Positions 44,597 to 59,400 of a DNA stretch of 64,000 nucleotides are shown in pieces; position 1 is the stretch's first letter, and each line of letters opens with the position of its first letter. This DNA is from Gammaproteobacteria bacterium (lineage in GTDB: Bacteria; Pseudomonadota; Gammaproteobacteria; UBA4575). Below the pieces are notes generated by a model. It searched no databases. It was given only the letters and a program-made list of their open reading frames with translations, and was not told the origin of the DNA. The DNA lies in contig CBDEUS010000002.1 of the NCBI GenBank assembly GCA_965243395.1, positions 768,001 to 832,000 on the forward strand. The letters run 5' to 3'. The translations under genes and the position numbers were made by a program.

Positions 44597-46549
44597 TCAA
44601 TGACCCAGGGCCATATCAATGTAGCCCGTAGGGCATACATCTGCACAAATATGACAACCAATACACTTGTTGTAATCGGTGTCTACATAACGACCTGTTG
44701 TTGACTCATCTTTCTTGACTCTGAAAACAGCGTCTTGTGGGCAGTACACAACGCAGTTATCGCATTCAAAGCACATGCCGCAACTCATGCAACGATTGGC
44801 TTCTTCTACAGCTTGTTCTTCAGTGAAATTTTTCATGCGTTCTTCAAAGTGACCTAATACTTGTTCTGCATCTGGGCCATGTTCTTCACGTAAACCGCGT
44901 GGCGTGAAGGGGAAGTGTCCTAGGAATAATTCATCATAAGAAATGATTTCTTGTTCTGAACGATCTTCATAGTTATGTACTGAGAATTTAGATTCATCTG
45001 TGCCACGTGTTTCGCCAACGCTATAGTCGTCAGGTTCAAGACCAGACTCACGCAATTTTTCTAAAAGATCAAAATGATGCACATCCACTTTAGGGCGTTT
45101 TCTGATTTCGGTATCTTTAAAATAATAATCGATACTTTCAGCTGCAATGGATGCTTGTCCGATAGCAGTGGTTAATAAGTGAGGGCGAATGATGTCGCCA
45201 CAAACAAAATGGCCTTCGCGATCTGGTACTGCATAAAATTTATCTGCATCGATTAACCCACGGCCATTATCAAATTCTTCCAAGCCATCCAGGTCACCTC
45301 CTTGACCAATCGCAGATACGATAAGATCACATTCAATTTCAAATTCTGTACCTTCAACTGGTACGGGTCGGTTATCTTCCATTTTGCATTCCGCCATACG
45401 TATTGCGGTTGCACGGCCATCCTCTCCAGTCACAACTTTGACAGGCATTACACCATCTTTAATTTTTACCCCTTCGCGTTGTGCATCATGAACTTCGTGT
45501 TCCGCTGCAGTCATTTCTGATTTAGGGAACAATGAAGTAAGTGTTACATCTGCACCTTCACGAGCCGCGGCATAAGCCGCATCATGTGCTACATAGCCAC
45601 CTATCACATGTTCAGGGGCTTCTTCTTTATTAAGTTTTTCAATTTTTCCAAGTCGGCGTGCAACGGAAACGACGTCGATTGAAGTATCACCACCGCCCAC
45701 ACAGACAACACGGTCTGCGGTAACTTGTAAACGACCTGTATTGAAGGCTTCTAAAAACTTCACCCCCGAAACACAGTTTGGCGCATCGCCGCCCTCGACC
45801 GGCAAGCCGCGACCAGATTGACAACCTAATGCCCACAGAACTGCATCAAATTCTTTTTCGATATCTTCGACCGATACATCTTTACCAACACGGGTATTCA
45901 TACGTGTTTCGATGTTGCCCATGTCTAGAATGCGTTGTATTTCATGGTTTAGAAAATCACGCGGGGTGCGATAACCAGGTATGCCATAACGGAACATGCC
46001 GCCCAGTTCTTCATGATCATCGAAAATAACGCTGGCATGGCCCATACGACGTAATTGGTAGGCAGCAGCAAGTCCTGCTGGTCCACCGCCGATAATGGCT
46101 ATGGTTTTACCGGATAATTGTTCAGGAGCCTCAAATTTGAAACCTTGCTCATAAGCCGTGTCACCAATATATTGCTCTACAGCATTAATACCTACAAAGT
46201 CTTCTACATGGTTGCGATTACAGCCATCCTCGCAAGGTGCGGGACAAACTCGACCCATCATAGATGGAAAAGGGTTTGCATCCGTTGAACGCAAGAACGC
46301 ATACTCTTGCATACTCATGCCTTCTACTTGTGGTTTTTCTATACCACGTACAATTTGCAACCAGCCACGAATATCTTCTCCAGAAGGGCAGCTACCCTGG
46401 CATGGAGGTGTGCGATGTACATAAGTAGGGCATTTATGTGAATGATCAGCTTCAAAGATTTTTTCGCCAAAATTTCCCCACTCGTAATCTCCGTCTTCAA
46501 ATTTTCTAAACGTTAGTTTGTGGGTTATTTGTTCCTTAGGCGTCGCCAT
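44597..46549 (-). CDS. dsrL: DsrL iron-sulfur flavoprotein (DsrL-1-like)
   Basis: PPCQGSCP, GRVCPAPCE, GGGPAG, C-terminal 2x4Fe-4S; no YRR motif. Confidence 0.96.
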   Translation of the reverse strand: MATPKEQITHKLTFRKFEDGDYEWGNFGEKIFEADHSHKCPTYVHRTPPCQGSCPSGEDIRGWLQIVRGIEKPQVEGMSMQEYAFLRSTDANPFPSMMGRVCPAPCEDGCNRNHVEDFVGINAVEQYIGDTAYEQGFKFEAPEQLSGKTIAIIGGGPAGLAAAYQLRRMGHASVIFDDHEELGGMFRYGIPGYRTPRDFLNHEIQRILDMGNIETRMNTRVGKDVSVEDIEKEFDAVLWALGCQSGRGLPVEGGDAPNCVSGVKFLEAFNTGRLQVTADRVVCVGGGDTSIDVVSVARRLGKIEKLNKEEAPEHVIGGYVAHDAAYAAAREGADVTLTSLFPKSEMTAAEHEVHDAQREGVKIKDGVMPVKVVTGEDGRATAIRMAECKMEDNRPVPVEGTEFEIECDLIVSAIGQGGDLDGLEEFDNGRGLIDADKFYAVPDREGHFVCGDIIRPHLLTTAIGQASIAAESIDYYFKDTEIRKRPKVDVHHFDLLEKLRESGLEPDDYSVGETRGTDESKFSVHNYEDRSEQEIISYDELFLGHFPFTPRGLREEHGPDAEQVLGHFEERMKNFTEEQAVEEANRCMSCGMCFECDNCVVYCPQDAVFRVKKDESTTGRYVDTDYNKCIGCHICADVCPTGYIDMALGH

Positions 46550-48971: not shown

Positions 48972-49304
48972 TTATACGCAACCAGTTGGTTTAGGTAGAC
49001 CCGCATATTTACATGCTTGTTTAGCAGGACCATAAGGAAATAATTCATATAAATATTTACTATTACCTTTGTCTTTACCTAATTTTTTACCAATTGCTTT
49101 AGTCAATACACGAACTGCTGGTGCAATTTGATATTCTTCATAGTACTCACGTAGAAAGTTAATAACTTCCCAATGATTATCTCCTAGCTCTGCACCATCA
49201 GCAGCAGCCATTGCATCTGCTAATTCGGGGCGCCAATCATTAAGATTTGCTAAATAACCTTCTTCGTCAGTTTCGTATGACTGCCCATTTACTTCTAAGG
49301 ACAT
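48972..49304 (-). CDS. dsrC: DsrC, canonical
   Basis: C-terminal QACKYAGLPKPTGCV with both CysB and CysA. Confidence 0.98.
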   Translation of the reverse strand: MSLEVNGQSYETDEEGYLANLNDWRPELADAMAAADGAELGDNHWEVINFLREYYEEYQIAPAVRVLTKAIGKKLGKDKGNSKYLYELFPYGPAKQACKYAGLPKPTGCV

Positions 49305-51689: not shown

Positions 51690-52949
51690 TTAACCAGCTG
51701 CAGCTTGTTCAGCTTTGTTGTTAAACCACTTCTCAGCTTCCTCGTCCCAACTATCTGAACGGAAATATGAGCTTTGGCGCGGTTCATTGATCATATTTGG
51801 ATCAACTTCAACACCAACACCTTCTAAGAAGTTGACCAAACCAATGCGTTCGATCATCTCTCCACAACGTTCATGCTCAAGACCATTTTCAGCCCAGAAA
51901 TCAATAGTTTCTTCAGCCAACTCTACTAGGCTCTCGTAATCTTCTTCGGTCTCAAGTTTCTTAAACGGAACAATTACAGTTCCCATTAAGTCGCCAATTT
52001 TAAGTGTACGCTTGCCACCAATTAATATTGTTACGCCTTGATCGTCACCTGGAGATAATGCTTTCACCATGACATTTAAACAGTGCATGCAGCGCACACA
52101 GTCTTGGTTATTTACTTCTAAGGTATCATCATCTTTAAGAGCGAGGGCTTGAGTGGGGCAGCGAGTGATTACATTATCAATTACATATTGGCGTCCTTTG
52201 CGTTTAACGAATTTTTTAACTTCGTCTTGGTCAACCTTCATGTCATCACGCCAAGTGCCAATAATGGAAAAATCCGAACGTTCGATTGAGTTCATGCAAT
52301 CATTTGGACAGCCTGAAACTTTAAATTTAAATTTGTATGGTAAAGCAGGACGATGAACATCATCTGTGAAATTATTTAGAAGTGTGCGATGAATTTTCAT
52401 TTCATCTGCATTGGACATTTCACAACGTGCAGCGCCTACACATGACATGCCTGTACGTACGCATGGTCCAGCACCACCTAAGTCCCATCCATAATCATTA
52501 ATTTCATCAAAAAAGTGTTGTGTGTTTTCAGTTGTTGCACCAATGAACATGATGTTTCCGGTTTGACCATGGAAAGTAACAAGACCTGAGCCATGTTTTT
52601 CCCAACTATCACCAAGCTGTCGTAGCATGTCTGTGGTGTAATAGTTACCTGCAGGTGGTTGTACTCGTAAAGTATGAAATTCCTTTGATTCAGGAAATGC
52701 CGCACCTACTTCAGAAAATCGTGGAATGATTCCACTACCGTAACCAAATACAGAAACCGTACCGCCTTTCCAATAACCTTTACGTGTTTCGTAAGAGTGT
52801 TCCAGTTGACCTAATAAAGAATTTGCTACGCCTTGAATTCTTTCGTCTTGATGTTGATCGCGTAAACGTTTAATGCCAGAAACAAAACTAGGCCAAGGAC
52901 CCGTTTCTAGCTCATCGAGCATGGGAGTTGGATGATGCTTGTCGGCCAT
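51690..52949 (-). CDS. dsrA: Reverse dissimilatory sulfite reductase alpha subunit
   Basis: TPMLDELETGPWPSF, CVGAARC, GCPNDC and CVRCMHC motifs. Confidence 0.98.
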   Translation of the reverse strand: MADKHHPTPMLDELETGPWPSFVSGIKRLRDQHQDERIQGVANSLLGQLEHSYETRKGYWKGGTVSVFGYGSGIIPRFSEVGAAFPESKEFHTLRVQPPAGNYYTTDMLRQLGDSWEKHGSGLVTFHGQTGNIMFIGATTENTQHFFDEINDYGWDLGGAGPCVRTGMSCVGAARCEMSNADEMKIHRTLLNNFTDDVHRPALPYKFKFKVSGCPNDCMNSIERSDFSIIGTWRDDMKVDQDEVKKFVKRKGRQYVIDNVITRCPTQALALKDDDTLEVNNQDCVRCMHCLNVMVKALSPGDDQGVTILIGGKRTLKIGDLMGTVIVPFKKLETEEDYESLVELAEETIDFWAENGLEHERCGEMIERIGLVNFLEGVGVEVDPNMINEPRQSSYFRSDSWDEEAEKWFNNKAEQAAAG

Positions 52950-53267
52950 GGTGGAATCTCCTAATAACTTTAGTCGAGAATGTAAAATTGCACTTTAAAT
53001 AAGTGGACTAATTGTACCGAAACGGCACTGGCATAATTGCCGTAACCGTCATGGAAACACATGTTTAGCAGTCTAGAAGTAGGGCTAAATAGGCAAAATC
53101 CCCTCCATGGGGTGCCGACTTAAATACAACTTATCCCATGAGAGATAGAGTTTATTAGGGCGAGGAGATAAGTGAAATTCAGTGTACATAATGTAGTCTA
53201 AATACTTATTCTATAACCAATTTATTTACATCGGCTTATTCTTCAAAACTATTGTAATTCTTTAACT

Positions 53268-54185
53268 ATGAAGCCATGTTTTCTCGAATCTGAAAGTGAT
53301 TATCGCCAATGGCGGGCAGAGAAGCTTAGTGGATATCCTGACTCCATCGAGCCGCTCATTGTAGATATCGAGGATCCCTATCATATTTCGCAGCAAGAGA
53401 GGACGAAATTAGTCCAAATATGCAAAAAAACCAATATGGTTTTCTATCGGATACTAAATCTCAAAACTGAGGAAAAGGGAATTGTTAAAACTATTGCTGC
53501 ACAAGTTGGTTTAATGAACATGGATGGAAATTTGTGTGCGGATCAGAATCGAATTTCTTCGATTCAAGTTCTAGATGATAAGTTGAGTGGCAACTATATT
53601 CCGTATACTAACAAATCACTTAATTGGCATACCGATGGATATTACAATCAAGATCAACAACGCATTCGTTCTTTTTTGATGCATTGTGTACGACCTGCAC
53701 ACTCAGGTGGAATCAATTCTTATTTAGATCCTGAAATCTTTTATATTTTGTTGCGTGATCTAAATCCGAACTATATTGAGACATTGCAGAAAGAGGATGT
53801 GATGTCCATCCCGGCAAATATTGATAAAAATAAAGTAATTAGAAAAGAAAAGCAGGGACCAGTATTTTTATTTGATAAAAAATCACAATCGCTCTATCTA
53901 CGTTATACCGCAAGAGCGCGCAATATTATTTGGAAAGATAATGTTGAAACGAAAAAGGTAAGAGATGTGATATTAGATATATTAAATAATAACGATTATC
54001 AGTTTCAATATCGTTTGCAGAGTGGTGAAGGCGTTATTTGTAATAACGTATTGCACAACCGAACTTCATTTAAAGACCAACCTAACTCTACACGTTTACT
54101 ATACCGTGCACGTTTTTATGACCGCGTTGCGGCTACTGTACAAGAACATGACTTAAGGGAGCAGATTGATGTTGTGGCTAAGTGA
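53268..54185 (+). CDS. TauD/TfdA-family Fe(II)/2OG dioxygenase
   Basis: WHTDGYY (HxD) and NNVLHNR...R.LYR motifs. Confidence 0.85.
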   Translation: MKPCFLESESDYRQWRAEKLSGYPDSIEPLIVDIEDPYHISQQERTKLVQICKKTNMVFYRILNLKTEEKGIVKTIAAQVGLMNMDGNLCADQNRISSIQVLDDKLSGNYIPYTNKSLNWHTDGYYNQDQQRIRSFLMHCVRPAHSGGINSYLDPEIFYILLRDLNPNYIETLQKEDVMSIPANIDKNKVIRKEKQGPVFLFDKKSQSLYLRYTARARNIIWKDNVETKKVRDVILDILNNNDYQFQYRLQSGEGVICNNVLHNRTSFKDQPNSTRLLYRARFYDRVAATVQEHDLREQIDVVAK

Positions 54186-54369
54186 AGTTTTGTTGCAACA
54201 TCATGAATTGCAATCTTTTGAGGAGCTTAAGTTAAAGTTGGGTGAGCGAGCCCAGCAAGGTGAAATGTTTTTTAGAATGGACGTGCGTCCACCCTTTCAA
54301 GATACACCCGAAAATTGGGAAGATATATTAGAAGCCGTGTTTACAGCGGCGAACAAATCGTCTGACTAA
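54169..54369 (+). CDS. 66-aa hypothetical protein
   Basis: RBS AAGGGAG; overlaps the stop of the TauD-like gene; MDVRPPF.DTPENWE motif. Confidence 0.8.
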   Translation: MLWLSEVLLQHHELQSFEELKLKLGERAQQGEMFFRMDVRPPFQDTPENWEDILEAVFTAANKSSD

Positions 54370-54378
54370 AAAATTAAC

Positions 54379-55068
54379 ATGTATTGGCAAGATAAAGAAG
54401 ATAAGAAAGAACAGTTTATCGTTCCAGACGACATCATTGATGTGTCATTTAAAGTGCAGTGTAAACAACTACCCTTGGATCATGCTTATGCGCTTTCGCA
54501 AGCCATTCAAAATGAATTACCCTGGATACATGATGAACCTCAGGCGGGGATCCACTTAATACATGGCGCAGAGTCTGGCAATGGCTGGATTCGTCCACAA
54601 GAGCCTGATGCAATTCTAAATTTATCTCGACGTACACGTTTTATGTTAAGGCTTCCAAAACATCGTGTTGAAGAAGCTCATCAGTTATTAAATGTGCCCA
54701 TAAATGTGGGAGGTTTTGAGGTGATTTTGAGCAATCCTCAGTCAAAAAAGCTTTCTGCACTGACTACAATATTCGCACGTCATATCATTACAGAAAGTAT
54801 TGAAGATGAAGATGAATTTTTAAATCAAGCGGCCCTGTTATTAAAGAATCAGGGAATACGGGTAAAGAAAATGATGAGTGGTTTAGCGCATGTGCTACGC
54901 ATGCCGGAGCAAAATTTATCAACCCGTAGCCTGATGATTGATGGGCTTGATATTGAAGAATCAATATTTTTGCAACAGCATGGTTTGGGGGAAGGCAGGA
55001 AAATAGGTTGTGGCTTATTTTTACCACATAAGGGGATTGACGCAGTGGGAGAAGCTCAGCAAAAATAA
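54379..55068 (+). CDS. cas6: Orphan Cas6 (type I-MYXAN Cas6/Cmx6-like RAMP protein)
   Basis: N-terminal LPLDHAYAL and C-terminal Gly loop S..LQ..GLGEGRKIGCGLF.P (GhGxxxxxGhG); 229 aa. Confidence 0.85.
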   Translation: MYWQDKEDKKEQFIVPDDIIDVSFKVQCKQLPLDHAYALSQAIQNELPWIHDEPQAGIHLIHGAESGNGWIRPQEPDAILNLSRRTRFMLRLPKHRVEEAHQLLNVPINVGGFEVILSNPQSKKLSALTTIFARHIITESIEDEDEFLNQAALLLKNQGIRVKKMMSGLAHVLRMPEQNLSTRSLMIDGLDIEESIFLQQHGLGEGRKIGCGLFLPHKGIDAVGEAQQK

Positions 55069-55133
55069 TTACTTTGAAAGTAATTTAATAATAATTATCA
55101 AAACTGTTATTTATATTTTGTGAGGAGTTAGAT

Positions 55134-55475
55134 ATGGCAATGAATGTAAATGGCAAAGAAATAGAAACCACTGATTCTGGGTTTCTAGTGAGCCTAGAAG
55201 ACTGGAATAAAGAGGTGGCAGAGGAAATTGCTAAAGACGAGGGCGTTGAATTAACAGATAAACATTGGGATGTAATCAATTATTTACGGGATGAGTTTGT
55301 AAATAATAATGGCAATCTGCCTAATACCCGCAATATGGTTAAGGCTATGGCCAAAGCTTGGGGAGAGAAAAAAATTGATGCCAAAGTTTTATATGACTTA
55401 TTTCCAGGCAATCCAAGTAAACAAGCAGGCCGTATTGGAGGATTACCTGAGAGTAGGCGCAAAGGTGGTTATTAA
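55134..55475 (+). CDS. DsrC/TusE-family paralogue with no cysteine (RspA-like)
   Basis: TD.GFL....W, LT..HW.VI.YLR and LFP.NP.KQA..I.GLP motifs; ends SRRKGGY. Confidence 0.9.
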   Translation: MAMNVNGKEIETTDSGFLVSLEDWNKEVAEEIAKDEGVELTDKHWDVINYLRDEFVNNNGNLPNTRNMVKAMAKAWGEKKIDAKVLYDLFPGNPSKQAGRIGGLPESRRKGGY

Positions 55476-55574
55476 CTTCTTTGTATAATTCCACCCAATA
55501 CGGAATACAGACAGGCTTCAGGGGTCTGATTACATTAGTTATAACTATTTTCAGTGTTACTGAGCGAGGTTAAA

Positions 55575-55778
55575 GTGAGTTCAAAACAGGAAAAGATTAA
55601 AAAATTACTCGAAATGCAAAAAAAGTTTATTGAGTTTGAGCAGAATGGTGAATTGACTGCACAAGGTTATTGGTTTCCTGAAGATGGCTCTGAGCTTGAT
55701 GGCTACAAAGAAGAATATATGAAGCTTGCTATGGAAGTGGTAGATGACGCGCATGAAGAAGTGGGCTCGAAACGATAA
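55575..55778 (+). CDS. 67-aa hypothetical protein
   Basis: GAGG RBS before GTG 55575; last gene before the terminator. Confidence 0.75.
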   Translation: MSSKQEKIKKLLEMQKKFIEFEQNGELTAQGYWFPEDGSELDGYKEEYMKLAMEVVDDAHEEVGSKR

Positions 55779-55787
55779 CCAAAATTC

Positions 55788-55839
55788 ATAATGTAATAAA
55801 AAAAAGGCCGCGAATGCGGCCTTTTTTTTATTACATTAT
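55788..55839. terminator. Bidirectional terminator with 24-bp perfect arms
   Basis: ATAATGTAAT-A8-GGCCGC-GAAT-GCGGCC-T8-ATTACATTAT between convergent genes. Confidence 0.92.
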
Positions 55840-56507
55840 TAAACTTCACTCCACATGCGTACCAAGTTTACATATACATTATCGATTCGTTTTGTATCTT
55901 CTGATTCAGGATCTTTACGCAACATTTTTTCTCTCGTTTTGTTGAGTTGATAAAGTAGCTCACGTTGTTCATTGCTGCGAATTAAACTTTGCACCCAGGT
56001 AACGGCTACCAAGCGCTCACCTTTGGTTATCGGTGTCACTTCATGATGAGTAGTAGCAGGATAGAGGACGGCGTCACCTGCAGGATATTTAATAGTTTGT
56101 TCACCATAGGGTGATCGTATGCGTAGTTCACCCCCTTCATATTCATCAGGAGCATTTAAGAAAATCGTTACTGCAATATCGGAACGGTAGTAATTGTCTT
56201 TGCCCATAATCGGGTCATCTAGATGTTCGCCATATTCCATTCCTATCTGGTAACGAGCATAAAATGGTGTGGCAACTCGATGTGGTAAAGCGGCACGTTG
56301 ATATTCTGGATGGCGAACTAAGTTATTCATGACAATTTGATTTAACTCGGCAATAATATTTTCATTAACCAGTTCTTCATTGTTTTTAACAGTTTTTGCA
56401 ATGTCGCCTGCTGATAGTTTTCCATGATGAAAATCTGCATTTGAGAGTAAAGCTTGAACTTGTTTGAGTTCCTTATCTCCAAGCACATGTTTAATTTGTA
56501 CTAACAT
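55839..56507 (-). CDS. PKHD-type Fe(II)/2OG hydroxylase (PiuC/YbiX-like)
   Basis: YGEHLD, RSD...TIFL..P.EYEGGEL and H.V.PIT.GER....W.QS motifs. Confidence 0.92.
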   Translation of the reverse strand: MLVQIKHVLGDKELKQVQALLSNADFHHGKLSAGDIAKTVKNNEELVNENIIAELNQIVMNNLVRHPEYQRAALPHRVATPFYARYQIGMEYGEHLDDPIMGKDNYYRSDIAVTIFLNAPDEYEGGELRIRSPYGEQTIKYPAGDAVLYPATTHHEVTPITKGERLVAVTWVQSLIRSNEQRELLYQLNKTREKMLRKDPESEDTKRIDNVYVNLVRMWSEV

Positions 56508-56560: not shown

Positions 56561-56887
56561 GTGATGATACTTAAAGTTACAATCGATGAGAAAACATTTC
56601 CGCTTGAGGTGGATGAAGAGATGATGCAGCGTGCGGATAACGCATTTAAAAAAATGGATGACGACATGAGTCAAGGTTGGCAGATGAGTAGAGTGTGGGT
56701 TGAAAACCCATCTGATTTACAACGCTGTCAAATCGCTGCAGATAAAATGCTAACGGCCATACAGCAAGAGAATAAGGCTACGGTTGGTCTCATGGCGGCT
56801 TATATTATGCGTAAACTACCGGGAATCACTGCTATTGATATTGATACCTCGGGCGATATGACTTTAACGGAAGTCGTGATGAATTAG
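56561..56887 (+). CDS. Hypothetical protein
   Basis: 108-aa ORF with KMD.DM..GWQMSR.WVE.P...RCQIAADK. Confidence 0.75.
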   Translation: MMILKVTIDEKTFPLEVDEEMMQRADNAFKKMDDDMSQGWQMSRVWVENPSDLQRCQIAADKMLTAIQQENKATVGLMAAYIMRKLPGITAIDIDTSGDMTLTEVVMN

Positions 56888-57086
56888 GGATGTTCAGCTT
56901 TACTAGTAACTCAGTAAATTCCTCTGAAACAACACAAAGTAAAACAGAATCAATACTTTTATTAGTGTTGTTTCCATCATCATAGCTCGCATTTTTAAGC
57001 ATAATCAGCAATACTTATCCCCCTAAAAATATGATTATTTAATTCCGGCAATGGCATGTCGGAATACCTTATCTCTGGAGGTACTT

Positions 57087-59015
57087 ATGGCGGAAGAGAG
57101 ACTTACGTTTCGACGCTACAAGGATGGTGATCATGTAACCACGCAGTGGAACAAGGACGTTGTTCAAAACGGACTTTCTGAAATTTGCCCGGCCTATATT
57201 CATCGCACTCCACCTTGTCAGGCTAGTTGTCCTTCTGGCCATGATATACGCGGATGGTTATCTATTGTTCGTGGCATCGATAAACCAAAAGGCGATATGA
57301 CGTGGGAAGAATATGCTTTTAGACGCATGACTATGTCGAATCCGTTTCCTTCTGTAATGGGTAGAGTGTGTCCCGCTCCTTGCGAAGATGGGTGTAATCG
57401 TAATGAGGTGGAAGAAGCGGTTGGAATTAATTCAGTTGAGCAATACGTTGGAGATTGGGCACTCGAACATAATTTAACTTTTCCAGAACCTGGACCAGAC
57501 AGTGGCAAAAAAGTTGCCATTGTTGGTGGTGGATGCGCCGGACTTACTGCGGCCTTCTTTTTAAGACAAAAAGGTCATGCATGCACATTATTTGATGAGT
57601 ATGACCAGCTTGGTGGCATGATGGTGTTTGGTATACCAGGTTATCGTACACCGCGTTCTGTTTTGGAAGGCGAGATTCAAAGAATTATTGATATGGGTGT
57701 AGAGGTCAAACTCAATACTCGTGTGGGTACTGATGTTTCGGTTGACGAACTTGAGCGAGATTATGACGCAATCTTTTGGGGGATTGGCGCAGTAGCTGGA
57801 AAAAGAATTCCTATTCCAGGTGGTGATGCGCCGAATGTTGTAGATGGAATGTCATATCTTCGAGCTTTCAATGAAGACCGATTGAAGTATTTAAATGGAC
57901 GCATTCTGGTGATTGGTGCCGGTGATACTGCAATGGATGTGCTAGCGGTTGCGCGACGTATTGGAAATATAAATAAAGTTACTAAAAAAGATCGTCCTGA
58001 AAATGTAATTTTAGGATACACCGTGCACGATGTTGCATCAGTGGCTAAACGTAAAGGTGCAGATGTTTGGGTAGTGTACAGACGTCCTATTTCTGAAGCG
58101 CCTGCAACTAAACATGAACTTGATGCCGTTATACGCGAGGGTGTGGAGATTCATGACGGTTTATCCCCTGTAGAAGTTATTCTGGATGAGAAAGGTCGGG
58201 CCAAAGCATTGCGCGTGGTGCCCGTTGAGCTTGTTGATGGTGAATTAAAAACTAAAGATGGTGAAGAGTTTGATATCGAATGTAGCCTGATAGTGAGCGC
58301 AACCGGTCAAACAGGTGATTACCGCGGTATTGAAGAGTTTGATAATGGATGGGGCTTAATGAATGCCGACAAGGTCTATCGAGTTGAAGGGAAGCCAGGG
58401 CATTTTGTTGCAGGAGATGCGATTAATCCGCATTTGTTAACTACTGCAATTGGGCAAGCGTCTATCGCTGCTGAAAGTATGCACCATTATTTAATGGACG
58501 AGGAAATTCCAGCCAGGCCTAAAATTGATACTCATCATTTTAAGTTGTTAGATGAATTACGAGAGCGTGAATTAGAGCCTGAACATTTTGAAACTCAAGA
58601 AGCATGGGGCACTGATTCTGCAAAATTTGCAGTGCATAATTATGAAGATCGCTCTGCTACAGAGATTGCAACTCATGACCAGTTGCACATGGCGTATTTT
58701 GAAGAAGTGCCAATGAATCGTAGAGATGAAGCGAACATTACTGCGGAAGAAGTGCTAAATAATTTTCAAGAACGTTTCTCTGTATTAGAAGAACAAAAAG
58801 CAATTGATGAAGCAGAGCGTTGCATGAGCTGTGGTATGTGTTTTGAATGTGACAACTGCGTTGTCTATTGTCCGGAAGATGCAATCTTCAGAGTAAAAAA
58901 GGAACAGTATGCAGTGGGGCGTTATGTCGATACCGATTATGACAAATGTGTAGGTTGTCACATCTGTGCAGATGTATGTCCAAGCGGTTATATCAAAATG
59001 GGATTAACGTATTAA
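57087..59015 (+). CDS. dsrL: Second DsrL paralogue with YRR motif
   Basis: RBS GGAGG before ATG 57087; colinear with the operon DsrL; GAGDTAMD and VYRRP motifs. Confidence 0.92.
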   Translation: MAEERLTFRRYKDGDHVTTQWNKDVVQNGLSEICPAYIHRTPPCQASCPSGHDIRGWLSIVRGIDKPKGDMTWEEYAFRRMTMSNPFPSVMGRVCPAPCEDGCNRNEVEEAVGINSVEQYVGDWALEHNLTFPEPGPDSGKKVAIVGGGCAGLTAAFFLRQKGHACTLFDEYDQLGGMMVFGIPGYRTPRSVLEGEIQRIIDMGVEVKLNTRVGTDVSVDELERDYDAIFWGIGAVAGKRIPIPGGDAPNVVDGMSYLRAFNEDRLKYLNGRILVIGAGDTAMDVLAVARRIGNINKVTKKDRPENVILGYTVHDVASVAKRKGADVWVVYRRPISEAPATKHELDAVIREGVEIHDGLSPVEVILDEKGRAKALRVVPVELVDGELKTKDGEEFDIECSLIVSATGQTGDYRGIEEFDNGWGLMNADKVYRVEGKPGHFVAGDAINPHLLTTAIGQASIAAESMHHYLMDEEIPARPKIDTHHFKLLDELRERELEPEHFETQEAWGTDSAKFAVHNYEDRSATEIATHDQLHMAYFEEVPMNRRDEANITAEEVLNNFQERFSVLEEQKAIDEAERCMSCGMCFECDNCVVYCPEDAIFRVKKEQYAVGRYVDTDYDKCVGCHICADVCPSGYIKMGLTY

Positions 59016-59061: not shown

Positions 59062-59400
59062 CTATACTGCGCTTCCGAAGCCTTTGTCTTGTGCACCAGC
59101 AGGTGCATGCAGACCCGCTACTCTACAGCCTTGCGCAACTGGACCACCTGGGAATAGATCATATAAATATTTCATGCCGCCTTTGTAGTGGAATTTTTCT
59201 TCCAATGCATCATGCAATTCACGCATATTAATTTGCTTAATTTCATGGCGCGAATAAAATTCTTGTAAAGCATGGATTACGCCAAAATGATCTTCAGTCA
59301 GAACCAGACCTTCTTCTGTAGCTACATCAGTTGCATTCTCGTCCGTCCAATCTTCCGTAATGAACATCCGGGCATAATCATTTTTAGTAGTTACTGTCAT
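59062..59400 (-). CDS. DsrC/TusE-family paralogue lacking CysA (RspA-like)
   Basis: LT.DH..VI..L and YLY.LFPGGPVAQGCRVAGL motifs; ends DKGFGSAV. Confidence 0.9.
   Translation of the reverse strand: MTVTTKNDYARMFITEDWTDENATDVATEEGLVLTEDHFGVIHALQEFYSRHEIKQINMRELHDALEEKFHYKGGMKYLYDLFPGGPVAQGCRVAGLHAPAGAQDKGFGSAV

Follow-up and report, generated by a model that had tools for sequence, protein, structure and literature searches.

Introduction

Why does a gene of the Cas6 family, which is named for its association with CRISPR (short palindromic repeats that are clustered and regularly interspaced), stand beside the sulfur-oxidation genes of a gammaproteobacterium, and what might its product do there? 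The question is raised by a 64,000-nt stretch of DNA (assembly GCA_965243395.1, contig CBDEUS010000002.1, positions 768,001 to 832,000), hereafter called the window, in which a cluster of five open reading frames (ORFs) occupies positions 53268–55839 of the plus strand. The start of dsrA, which heads dsrABEFHCMKLJOPN and the IscA-like dsrR, lies 318 nt from this cluster on the opposite strand, and the third gene of the cluster encodes the Cas6-like protein. Here we report that this gene encodes a genuine Cas6-fold protein of the Cmx6 family, that the clade to which it belongs no longer serves CRISPR, and that the clade is an accessory of rDsrAB, the oxidative-type dissimilatory sulfite reductase, in Gammaproteobacteria. 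The cluster had been singled out by a reading of the letters of the window alone (the sequence-only reading), whose claims are taken up below with the results that bear on them.

One gene of the cluster has been described before. In its passage on a tauD-like gene, the study of Loffler et al. (2020; PMC7596348) states that this gene, to which Lenk et al. (2012) gave the name dsrQ, lies ahead of the dsr clusters of many aerobic sulfur oxidisers, and guesses a role in the conversion of sulfonate to sulfite. The first gene of our cluster resembles it in belonging to the TauD family, in being divergent from dsrA and in its occurrence in chemotrophic sulfur oxidisers. The words 'Cas6' and 'CRISPR' each occur 0 times in that account (PMC7596348), and its tauD passage names neither a DsrC paralogue ending in RKGGY nor the small proteins treated here. 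A dsr-linked or solo Cmx6 is likewise not mentioned in passages of Makarova et al. 2011 (PMC3150331). In the literature searched, which was covered mostly through search listings, no paper on a dsr-linked Cas6-like gene was found, and only dsrQ was described there. New in the present study are the sampled co-occurrence table, the cross-tabulation with Cas1, the tree against CRISPR-linked copies, the separation of two sub-modules within the cluster, a test for a complex and the palindrome upstream of dsrA.

Results

Family and fold of the Cas6-like protein

The Cas6-like protein scores 197.3 bits against PF09559 (E 3.1e-58, cut-off 26.7) and 132.4 bits against TIGR02807, the cas6_cmx6 equivalog of NCBIfam (cut-off 98.85), and is also recognised by the Cas6 models of PADLOC (E 2.4e-58). 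Its AlphaFold2 (AF2) model, based on an alignment of 58 diverse relatives, has a mean predicted local distance difference test score (pLDDT) of 92.5 and a predicted template modelling score (pTM) of 0.88. When the model was compared with the PDB using Foldseek, the best matches were the Cas6 proteins of type I-B CRISPR-associated transposons (CAST; 8fcu_B and 8fcj_B, E about 1e-16, template modelling (TM) score 0.72–0.79), followed by 5yi6, Pyrococcus Cas6 and Cse3/Cas6e, with 3i4h and 3pkm also among these entries, and the strong matches listed were all Cas6. The fold of two RNA recognition motifs (RRM), which had been set as a check beforehand, is therefore present in the model. The sole match in the PDB at the level of sequence was again 8fcj_B (E 9.5e-12).

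The sequence-only reading had called the gene Cas6/Cmx6-like and had noted its DH motif and Gly-rich loop; the profile scores and the conservation of the motif residues bear this out. Both the DH motif (D34, H35) and the loop (G202, G204, G210, C211, G212, F214) are present and conserved. The four glycines are kept in 58–62 of the 62 clade rows and in 5/5 CRISPR-linked rows of the tree alignment described below, and H35, which we assume to be the catalytic His candidate of Cmx6, is kept in 53 and 5 of these rows, respectively; the equivalent site of the solved relative 8fcj_B is occupied by N. Across the family to which the genome belongs, the protein is intact, single-copy, syntenic and 67–77% identical. 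No fused forms were found among the proteins of 402–2000 aa that were searched, which is weak evidence.

Linkage to dsrA

The distribution of the gene was determined in a class sample of 301 Gammaproteobacteria genomes (at least 90% complete, drawn evenly), in which dsrA was defined by TIGR02064 with an E value of at most 1e-40. PF09559 was found in 95 genomes (including G679, an unpublished genome and a CRISPR-linked case described below) and dsrA in 93; both were present in 90, only PF09559 in 5, only dsrA in 3 and neither in 203. The Cas6-like gene was thus carried by 90/93 dsrA-positive genomes versus 5/208 dsrA-negative genomes. The distance between the two genes in the 90 genomes with both was at most 6 kb in 72 and more than 0.6 Mb on one contig in 3, and in 15 the genes were on different draft contigs. 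In a phylum sample of 401 genomes, the gene was present in 5/47 dsrA-positive and 0/354 dsrA-negative genomes; all 5 carriers belonged to the same class, and the 42 dsrA-positive genomes of other classes contained none. Within the class, the distribution of the clade almost coincides with that of dsrAB, and its gene is usually adjacent.

The gene neighbourhood was examined in a one-genome-per-species collection, which yielded 569 relatives among 595 pattern matches. The best 80 (43–76% identity) derive from sulfur oxidisers labelled Thiothrix, Thiogranum, Sulfuricaulis, Thiohalobacter, Thiomargarita and Parabeggiatoa and from many unnamed Gammaproteobacteria; for each neighbour, only loci with enough flank were counted. 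A divergent dsrA was located upstream in 68/74 of these loci, accompanied by dsrQ (72/78), the gene for a 66-aa protein (76/80), a DsrC paralogue downstream (72/77; on the same strand in 63/77 and inverted in 9 of the 72), the gene for a 67-aa protein (55/73), a gene for a PiuC-type oxygenase (55/70) and the gene for a 108-aa protein (46/69). Every locus examined from the genome's own family had one gene order, usually extending from dsrA to the PiuC-type oxygenase on the far side.

Absence of CRISPR from the genome and among carriers

The genome from which the window was taken comprises 2.58 Mb in 2 contigs and is 100% complete. A profile search found no Cas1 in it, a single PF09559 gene and no cas3 above the cut-off of 102; two helicases matched cas3_core with 43 and 29 bits. 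The exact-18-mer scan for spaced repeats found no CRISPR array in this genome. Its one match was rejected as an array since it lies in a coding Lys/Arg repeat (KRKT). The source gene of that match (C1:81450-81930, minus strand) encodes a protein of ~180 aa that consists almost wholly of KRKT/AKRKT repeats and has a histone-H1-like composition. The sequence-only reading had seen neither an array nor cas1/2/3/5/7/8 in the window, and the genome-wide check likewise found no Cas1, no array and no cas3 above its cut-off.

The same picture was obtained for the relatives. Arrays were found in 0/80 related loci, where two repeat matches were rejected, one being a coding repeat and the other an AT-rich tandem. 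In the genome's own family, 23/24 other genomes contain the Cas6-like gene and 4/24 contain Cas1. In the class sample, Cas1 is missing from 40/90 dsrA-positive carriers, several single-contig genomes among them, and is present somewhere in the genome in 50/90 carriers and in 74/206 genomes without PF09559 (the Cas1 counts include G679, G458 and G533). In all three cases checked (G101, G318, G360), Cas1 is located far from the Cas6-like gene. The class sample also contains ordinary CRISPR-linked PF09559 genes, namely those of G440 and G679, which are both dsrA-negative, and a second fragment in G678; these are located ~7 kb from Cas1. The expectation of the sequence-only reading that homologues would form a clade linked to dsrA and not to arrays agrees with all of these counts, and the opposite outcome, homologues that mostly flank arrays, was looked for and is not what the loci contain.

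Comparison with CRISPR-linked Cmx6

A tblastn search of plasmids recovered six cyanobacterial Cmx6 with 25–28% identity to the Cas6-like protein. For five of the six, the gene belongs to a complete cas6-cas3-cas8-cas7-cas5-cas1-cas2 operon, and the search for arrays, made beside four of these, was positive each time. A maximum-likelihood tree was calculated from 68 rows, consisting of 57 cluster representatives, the window, four genomes of known context and the six copies from plasmids. One group was formed by the 62 non-cyanobacterial rows; it is separated from the CRISPR-linked five by a branch of 1.21 changes per column (Shimodaira–Hasegawa-like approximate likelihood ratio test (SH-aLRT) 99). 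The sixth plasmid copy (L125; Gloeobacter morelensis plasmid pGMOR1, 8974-9765) lies outside any cas operon, among genes of the 3'-phosphoadenosine-5'-phosphosulfate (PAPS) reductase family, a cupin gene and DNA methyltransferase genes, and branches between the CRISPR-linked and the dsr-linked groups; it may represent a second, independent non-CRISPR use of the family.

The likeness of the dsr-linked protein to the Cas6/Cmx6 of type I-MYXAN systems and type I-B CAST extends from the common families (PF09559 and TIGR02807, both over the cut-off) and the double-RRM fold (TM 0.72–0.79 to 8fcu_B and 8fcj_B) to the DH motif and the Gly-rich loop GxGxxRxxGCGxFxP. Residues D34, H35, R91, F147, Q199 and G202-x-G204...G210-C211-G212-x-F214 are common to both groups of the tree. 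The dsr-type clade differs from the CRISPR-linked copies by its low identity and its separate position on a long branch, and by an N-terminal MxWQE stretch, W49, a GNGW-RP insertion (GNGWxRP; present in most members and missing in basal ones) and the invariant residues R85, E144 and K218; a basic insertion of the CRISPR-linked copies is gone, and the protein is not basic overall. Membership in a type I-MYXAN system, as indicated by a cas operon or an array, is found for five of the six cyanobacterial plasmid copies. For the dsr-type clade, in contrast, neither cas genes nor arrays are nearby in any of the 80 loci, and cas genes are often missing from the entire genome.

The DsrC paralogue and the two sub-modules

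The gene that follows the Cas6-like gene encodes a paralogue of DsrC (PF04358, E 1.7e-35; TIGR03342, E 2e-31) that shares 43% identity with the true DsrC encoded in the window. The protein contains no Cys anywhere, as the sequence-only reading had noted, so that both cysteines of the C-terminal arm are missing; it ends in ...SRRKGGY and has an isoelectric point (pI) of 5.21. The RKGGY tail is invariant in the 67/67 full-length copies of the related loci. DsrC members without cysteines are called RspA and described as regulatory in PMC8477390; this label is a proposal. The paralogue resembles RspA in its family matches and the loss of both cysteines, and differs from it by the invariant RKGGY end and the fixed Cas6-like neighbour.

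In the three distant gammaproteobacterial loci L120–L122, where the order is dsrA, then Cas6-like gene, DsrC paralogue, further genes and dsrQ, the paralogue remains adjacent to the Cas6-like gene. In G101, the Cas6-like gene, the RKGGY paralogue (0.33 Mb away) and dsrA (0.6 Mb away) are scattered over one contig, yet all are retained. The steady pair of the cluster is therefore the Cas6-like protein and the RKGGY paralogue. The Cas6-like gene of G101 (L123; G101:C11, 9746-10417) stands alone, divergent from rnc (RNase III)-era-recO-pdxJ-acpS and beside an insertion sequence (IS) element.

For a complex of the two proteins, structure prediction with one alignment per chain gave an interaction prediction score from aligned errors (ipSAE) of 0.55 (0.54, 0.59, 0.55); the best of 3 controls reached 0.03. 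The runs agreed in at least 71% of the contacts, with a partner pLDDT of at least 84. In the calibration, the mark was reached by 58/80 solved complexes and 2/110 mismatched pairs, and values of at most 0.60 comprise 7/80 solved complexes and both passing mismatches; the prediction is thus weak support for a complex and is used here as a lead only. The partnership between the Cas6-like protein and the Cys-free paralogue that the sequence-only reading had suggested agrees with their co-occurrence in 72/77 loci, and the complex prediction gives it weak support.

The remaining genes of the cluster have a different distribution. In six dsrA-positive genomes of other classes (DsrA 64–68% identical), dsrQ is divergent from dsrA in 6/6 and the 66-aa gene is next to it in 4/6, and none of these six loci has a Cas6-like gene or an RKGGY paralogue. 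The cluster therefore consists of two sub-modules rather than one unit, the Cas6-like gene with the RKGGY paralogue, and a second, older one formed by dsrQ and the 66-aa gene. The residues of DsrQ for iron and 2-oxoglutarate (H121, D123, H263, R265, R280, R282) are kept in 71–72 of 72 related loci. The 66-aa protein is predicted by AF2 to form three helices (pLDDT 87.2); it had no family match and no fold match in the PDB (best E 1.2), and its matches in the Atlas are automatically named clusters without Pfam. The 67-aa protein also had no family match, and the Atlas contains only unnamed 67-aa clusters for it; among relatives, the conserved part of the listed 74-aa ORF starts near residue 8, where a GTG follows a GAGG. 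PADLOC had no match for the small proteins, dsrQ or the DsrC paralogue. An additional conserved gene of ~235 aa without a Pfam match, possibly a sixth member of the module, is located between the 66-aa gene and the Cas6-like gene in 18/80 loci (L066, L070 and 16 more). The genome of the window has a copy with 40% identity at C2:724017-724688, which is 44 kb upstream of the window.

Intergenic elements

The spacer between dsrA and dsrQ contains a conserved core, and in this core is a palindrome with the consensus TATC(C/T)C-N4-G(G/A)GATA. In 61 such spacers, the best match to TATCCC-N3-5-GGGATA had at least 11 of 12 positions in 35 and at least 10 in 46; among 1220 shuffles, none reached 11 and 49 reached 10. 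The palindrome is located ~160–240 nt from the dsrA ATG in most loci and was not found in the dsrA-dsrQ spacers of the six other-class loci that lack the Cas6-like gene (6/6). As RNA, it would form a stem of 6 bp with a 4-nt loop, as large as the small hairpin of the repeats that accompany CRISPR-linked Cmx6. It may be a DNA operator just as well as an RNA target. Between the palindrome and dsrA, a conserved block (CAAAATCCCCTCCATGGGGTGC) is probably part of the dsrA control region; it holds an inverted repeat of its own (CCCC...GGGG).

The motif CCCAATACGGAATACAGACAG upstream of the 67-aa gene is present as a single copy in the genome and is similar to a palindrome half-site; in 40 aligned loci, a -10-like element (TACATT, 55531-55536) stands behind it at a constant distance. 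The two elements are a putative promoter, and the 67-aa gene therefore probably has a promoter of its own. G+C-rich hairpins were seen by eye after the DsrC paralogue in L048, L092, L111 and L115, as would be expected if the 67-aa gene of these lineages were transcribed as a unit of its own.

Rfam gave nothing at the gathering score and only sub-threshold matches on the terminator, and the folding z-scores of the candidate elements (-0.3 to -0.85) did not stand out from shuffles. A loose regular expression for a small hairpin with a tail was dropped after it matched 416 places in 1.09 Mb, and a stricter one also matched a fixed place inside dsrE, which was taken for coding conservation.

Discussion

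What, then, does a Cas6 fold do beside rDsrAB? The sequence-only reading had proposed that this Cas6 was co-opted from immunity into sulfur oxidation. The fold, the dsr-linked clade and the absence of CRISPR agree with the co-option itself; the processing of the 12.7-kb dsr mRNA, which was given as an example of the new role, found no backing, and no structured RNA stood out. Our preferred explanation, including its RNA step, falls a little short of an even chance as a whole. The protein would still use the RNA-binding face of Cas6: either alone or together with the DsrC paralogue, it would attach to a short hairpin in dsr-locus transcripts and perhaps cut it, and this binding would tune dsr expression after transcription; the best candidate for the target is the palindrome upstream of dsrA. 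The use of the RNA face is proposed because the DH motif and the Gly-rich loop have been kept over a very long branch, and from these motifs we consider it possible, at somewhat less than even chances, that the binding of RNA hairpins was retained and acts on dsr-locus transcripts. In a broader form, which we put forward tentatively, the Cas6-like protein and the RKGGY paralogue would be a dedicated switch on the sulfur-oxidation machinery. In its RNA version, a hairpin-specific binder or nuclease would adjust how much dsr transcript is present or how it is processed, depending on the state of rDsrAB as sensed via the DsrC-like arm; in its protein version, the Cas6 fold would be re-tooled to grip a protein tail instead of RNA.

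Several observations weigh against an RNA-binding role in dsr regulation. The clade is not basic (median pI 6.47, 37/58 below 7, 5.92 in the protein of the window), and H35 is not universal in it (53/62). It has no Lys/Arg-rich insertion like that of CRISPR-linked Cmx6 and has invariant residues of its own (R85, E144, K218, W70), which together hint at a new site. The folding of the palindrome is no better than that of shuffles (z -0.31 and -0.85), and one-sided changes in it point to neither strand: G-U pairs would arise on the plus strand in some lineages and, in the family of the window, on the minus strand. It has only 9/12 matching positions in the three basal loci L120–L122, which carry the Cas6-like gene, and does not count as found there; moreover, the half-site in CCCAATACGGAATACAGACAG stands at a fixed spacing from a -10-like box, in the manner of a DNA element. 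The complex score is weak by the tool's own calibration, and no genomic context comes with the 57 cluster representatives of the tree. Finally, kin are not independent, so that the co-occurrence counts describe the distribution of the gene and overstate the number of independent events.

Some of these points favour a role in which no RNA is involved and the protein is an adaptor or chaperone that holds the Cys-free DsrC paralogue, for instance by its RKGGY arm, and presents it either to rDsrAB as a modulator or plug, or to the neighbouring oxygenases (DsrQ and the PiuC-like one) as a substrate for an O2-dependent modification. Such a role would fit the near-neutral to acidic pI of the Cas6-like protein, the clade-specific residues R85, E144 and K218 together with the lost basic insertion, the invariance of the RKGGY tail (67/67) and the persistence of the pair in 72/77 loci, in L120–L122 and in G101, where the genes are scattered; the complex prediction (0.55 versus 0.03 for the best control) gives it weak support, and both oxygenases look active or intact from their sequences. 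A precedent is DsrD, a small accessory protein encoded with dsrAB, which was once read as a DNA binder and which PMC8794893 describes as an allosteric activator of DsrAB in sulfate reducers, acting on the enzyme and not on DNA; DsrD, however, belongs to reductive-type systems and serves here as an analogy. The retention of the DH motif and the entire Gly-rich loop across a very long branch is easier to understand if a nucleic-acid face is in use, and the complex score lies within the range of the false passes. Since dsrQ and the 66-aa gene accompany dsrA in 6/6 other-class loci that lack the Cas6-like gene and the RKGGY paralogue, the oxygenase does not need the pair. We regard a protein-only role as possible, but would sooner doubt than accept it.

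The palindrome can also be read as DNA. It is a classic 16-bp inverted repeat, a related half-site occupies a promoter-like place before the 67-aa gene, and the DsrC of A. vinosum reportedly binds the dsr promoter region (Grimm et al. 2010). The DsrC paralogue, which would be of the RspA type proposed to be regulatory, or another protein, might therefore be a DNA-binding regulator at the palindrome, with the Cas6-like protein as a co-factor with a new chemistry, for instance an enzyme with a new active site on R85, E144, H217 and K218; the new invariant polar residues of the clade would be in line with this. The paralogue, however, is acidic (pI 5.21), no particular chemistry is indicated, and no fused forms were found among the longer proteins, which is weak evidence. 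We consider this arrangement unlikely. Even less can be said for an ordinary Cas6, whether as what is left of a type I-MYXAN system that disappeared or as a nuclease acting in trans on arrays elsewhere in the genome. NCBI and JGI name members of the clade 'type I-MYXAN CRISPR-associated protein Cas6/Cmx6', the equivalog cut-off of TIGR02807 is passed and Cas1 is present somewhere in 50/90 carriers, but the gene tracks dsrA (90/93) and not Cas1. Cas1 is missing from the other 40 carriers, including several single-contig genomes, is rare in the genome's own family (4/24 versus 23/24 for the intact, single-copy and syntenic Cas6-like gene) and is far away in G101, G318 and G360, whereas the true CRISPR-linked copies of G440 and G679 and the fragment of G678 are located in its vicinity. 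A CRISPR role of the gene at this place, be it ordinary or that of a relic, is very improbable and close to refuted.

Whichever of these mechanisms applies, the gene behaves like a dsr gene, being present in 90/93 dsrA-positive genomes and usually within 6 kb of dsrA, and the public label of the family would mistakenly ascribe a CRISPR component to many sulfur oxidisers. The clade gives CRISPR biology a large and clean example of exaptation, in which a Cas6 took on a role outside defence. Sulfur biology gains two or more partners of rDsrAB that are unstudied and near-universal, among them the Cas6-like protein and the DsrC paralogue with the RKGGY tail. The organisms concerned dominate the oxidation of sulfide in oxygen-minimum zones, vents, sediments and symbioses. 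If the pair is indeed a switch, a Cas protein would have been domesticated into core energy metabolism, as the first Cas6 with a housekeeping role, and new dsr genes would be defined in nearly every sampled gammaproteobacterium that carries dsrAB. The palindrome, as RNA and as DNA, offers a testable target for both proteins.

Features of the locus and neighbouring genes

The features of the cluster and its surroundings are listed in Table 1. The tight arrangement of genes for a TauD-like protein, a 66-aa protein, the Cas6-like protein, the Cys-free DsrC paralogue and a 67-aa protein, divergent from dsrA, was seen as the sequence-only reading had described it, with all ORFs on the same strand, and its closure by a terminator agrees with the T-flanked hairpin of 20 pairs. 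The claim of a single five-gene operon holds for the gene order and is qualified by the putative promoter before the 67-aa gene and by the inversion of the DsrC paralogue in 9/72 loci.

Table 1. Positions of genes and intergenic elements in and around the cluster (coordinates refer to the window).
Feature	Position	Strand	Evidence or remark
dsrA	51690..52949	-	TIGR02064, 629.4 bits (cut-off 392.85); first gene of dsrABEFHCMKLJOPN(R), divergent from cluster
Conserved intergenic block CAAAATCCCCTCCATGGGGTGC	53094..53115		Between palindrome and dsrA; near-invariant in alignment of 16 dsrA-dsrQ regions of close relatives
16-bp palindrome TATCCC-ATGA-GAGATA	53132..53147		Candidate operator or RNA hairpin target
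dsrQ (TauD-family Fe(II)/2-oxoglutarate oxygenase)	53268..54185	+	PF02668, E 3.4e-16
66-aa acidic protein gene	54169..54369	+	ORF; 17-nt overlap with dsrQ stop
Cas6/Cmx6-family gene, 229 aa	54379..55068	+	PF09559 and TIGR02807 (scores in text)
Cys-free DsrC/TusE-family paralogue, 113 aa, RKGGY tail	55134..55475	+	PF04358 (E value in text)
Conserved motif CCCAATACGGAATACAGACAG	55494..55514	+	Upstream of 67-aa gene; anchored alignment, 40/46 intergenic regions
67-aa acidic protein gene	55575..55778	+	ORF; conservation among relatives
Bidirectional intrinsic-terminator-like hairpin	55790..55837	both	20-pair stem, T-runs on each strand
PiuC/YbiX-type Fe(II)-dependent oxygenase	55839..56507	-	NF003974, 242 bits; convergent neighbour
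108-aa acidic protein gene	56561..56887	+	Conserved neighbour; no family match

The true DsrC of the window is encoded at 48972-49304, and the DsrL of the dsr operon at 44597-46549. The neighbourhood of the cluster comprises two oxygenases and four small or acidic proteins that are uncharacterised. Beyond it, a second DsrL-like NAD(P)-binding Fe-S flavoprotein (NF009410, 684 bits) is encoded at 57051-59015 on the plus strand. A third DsrC-family gene is located just past the cluster at 59062-59400 on the minus strand, and the genome contains five DsrC-family genes in total.

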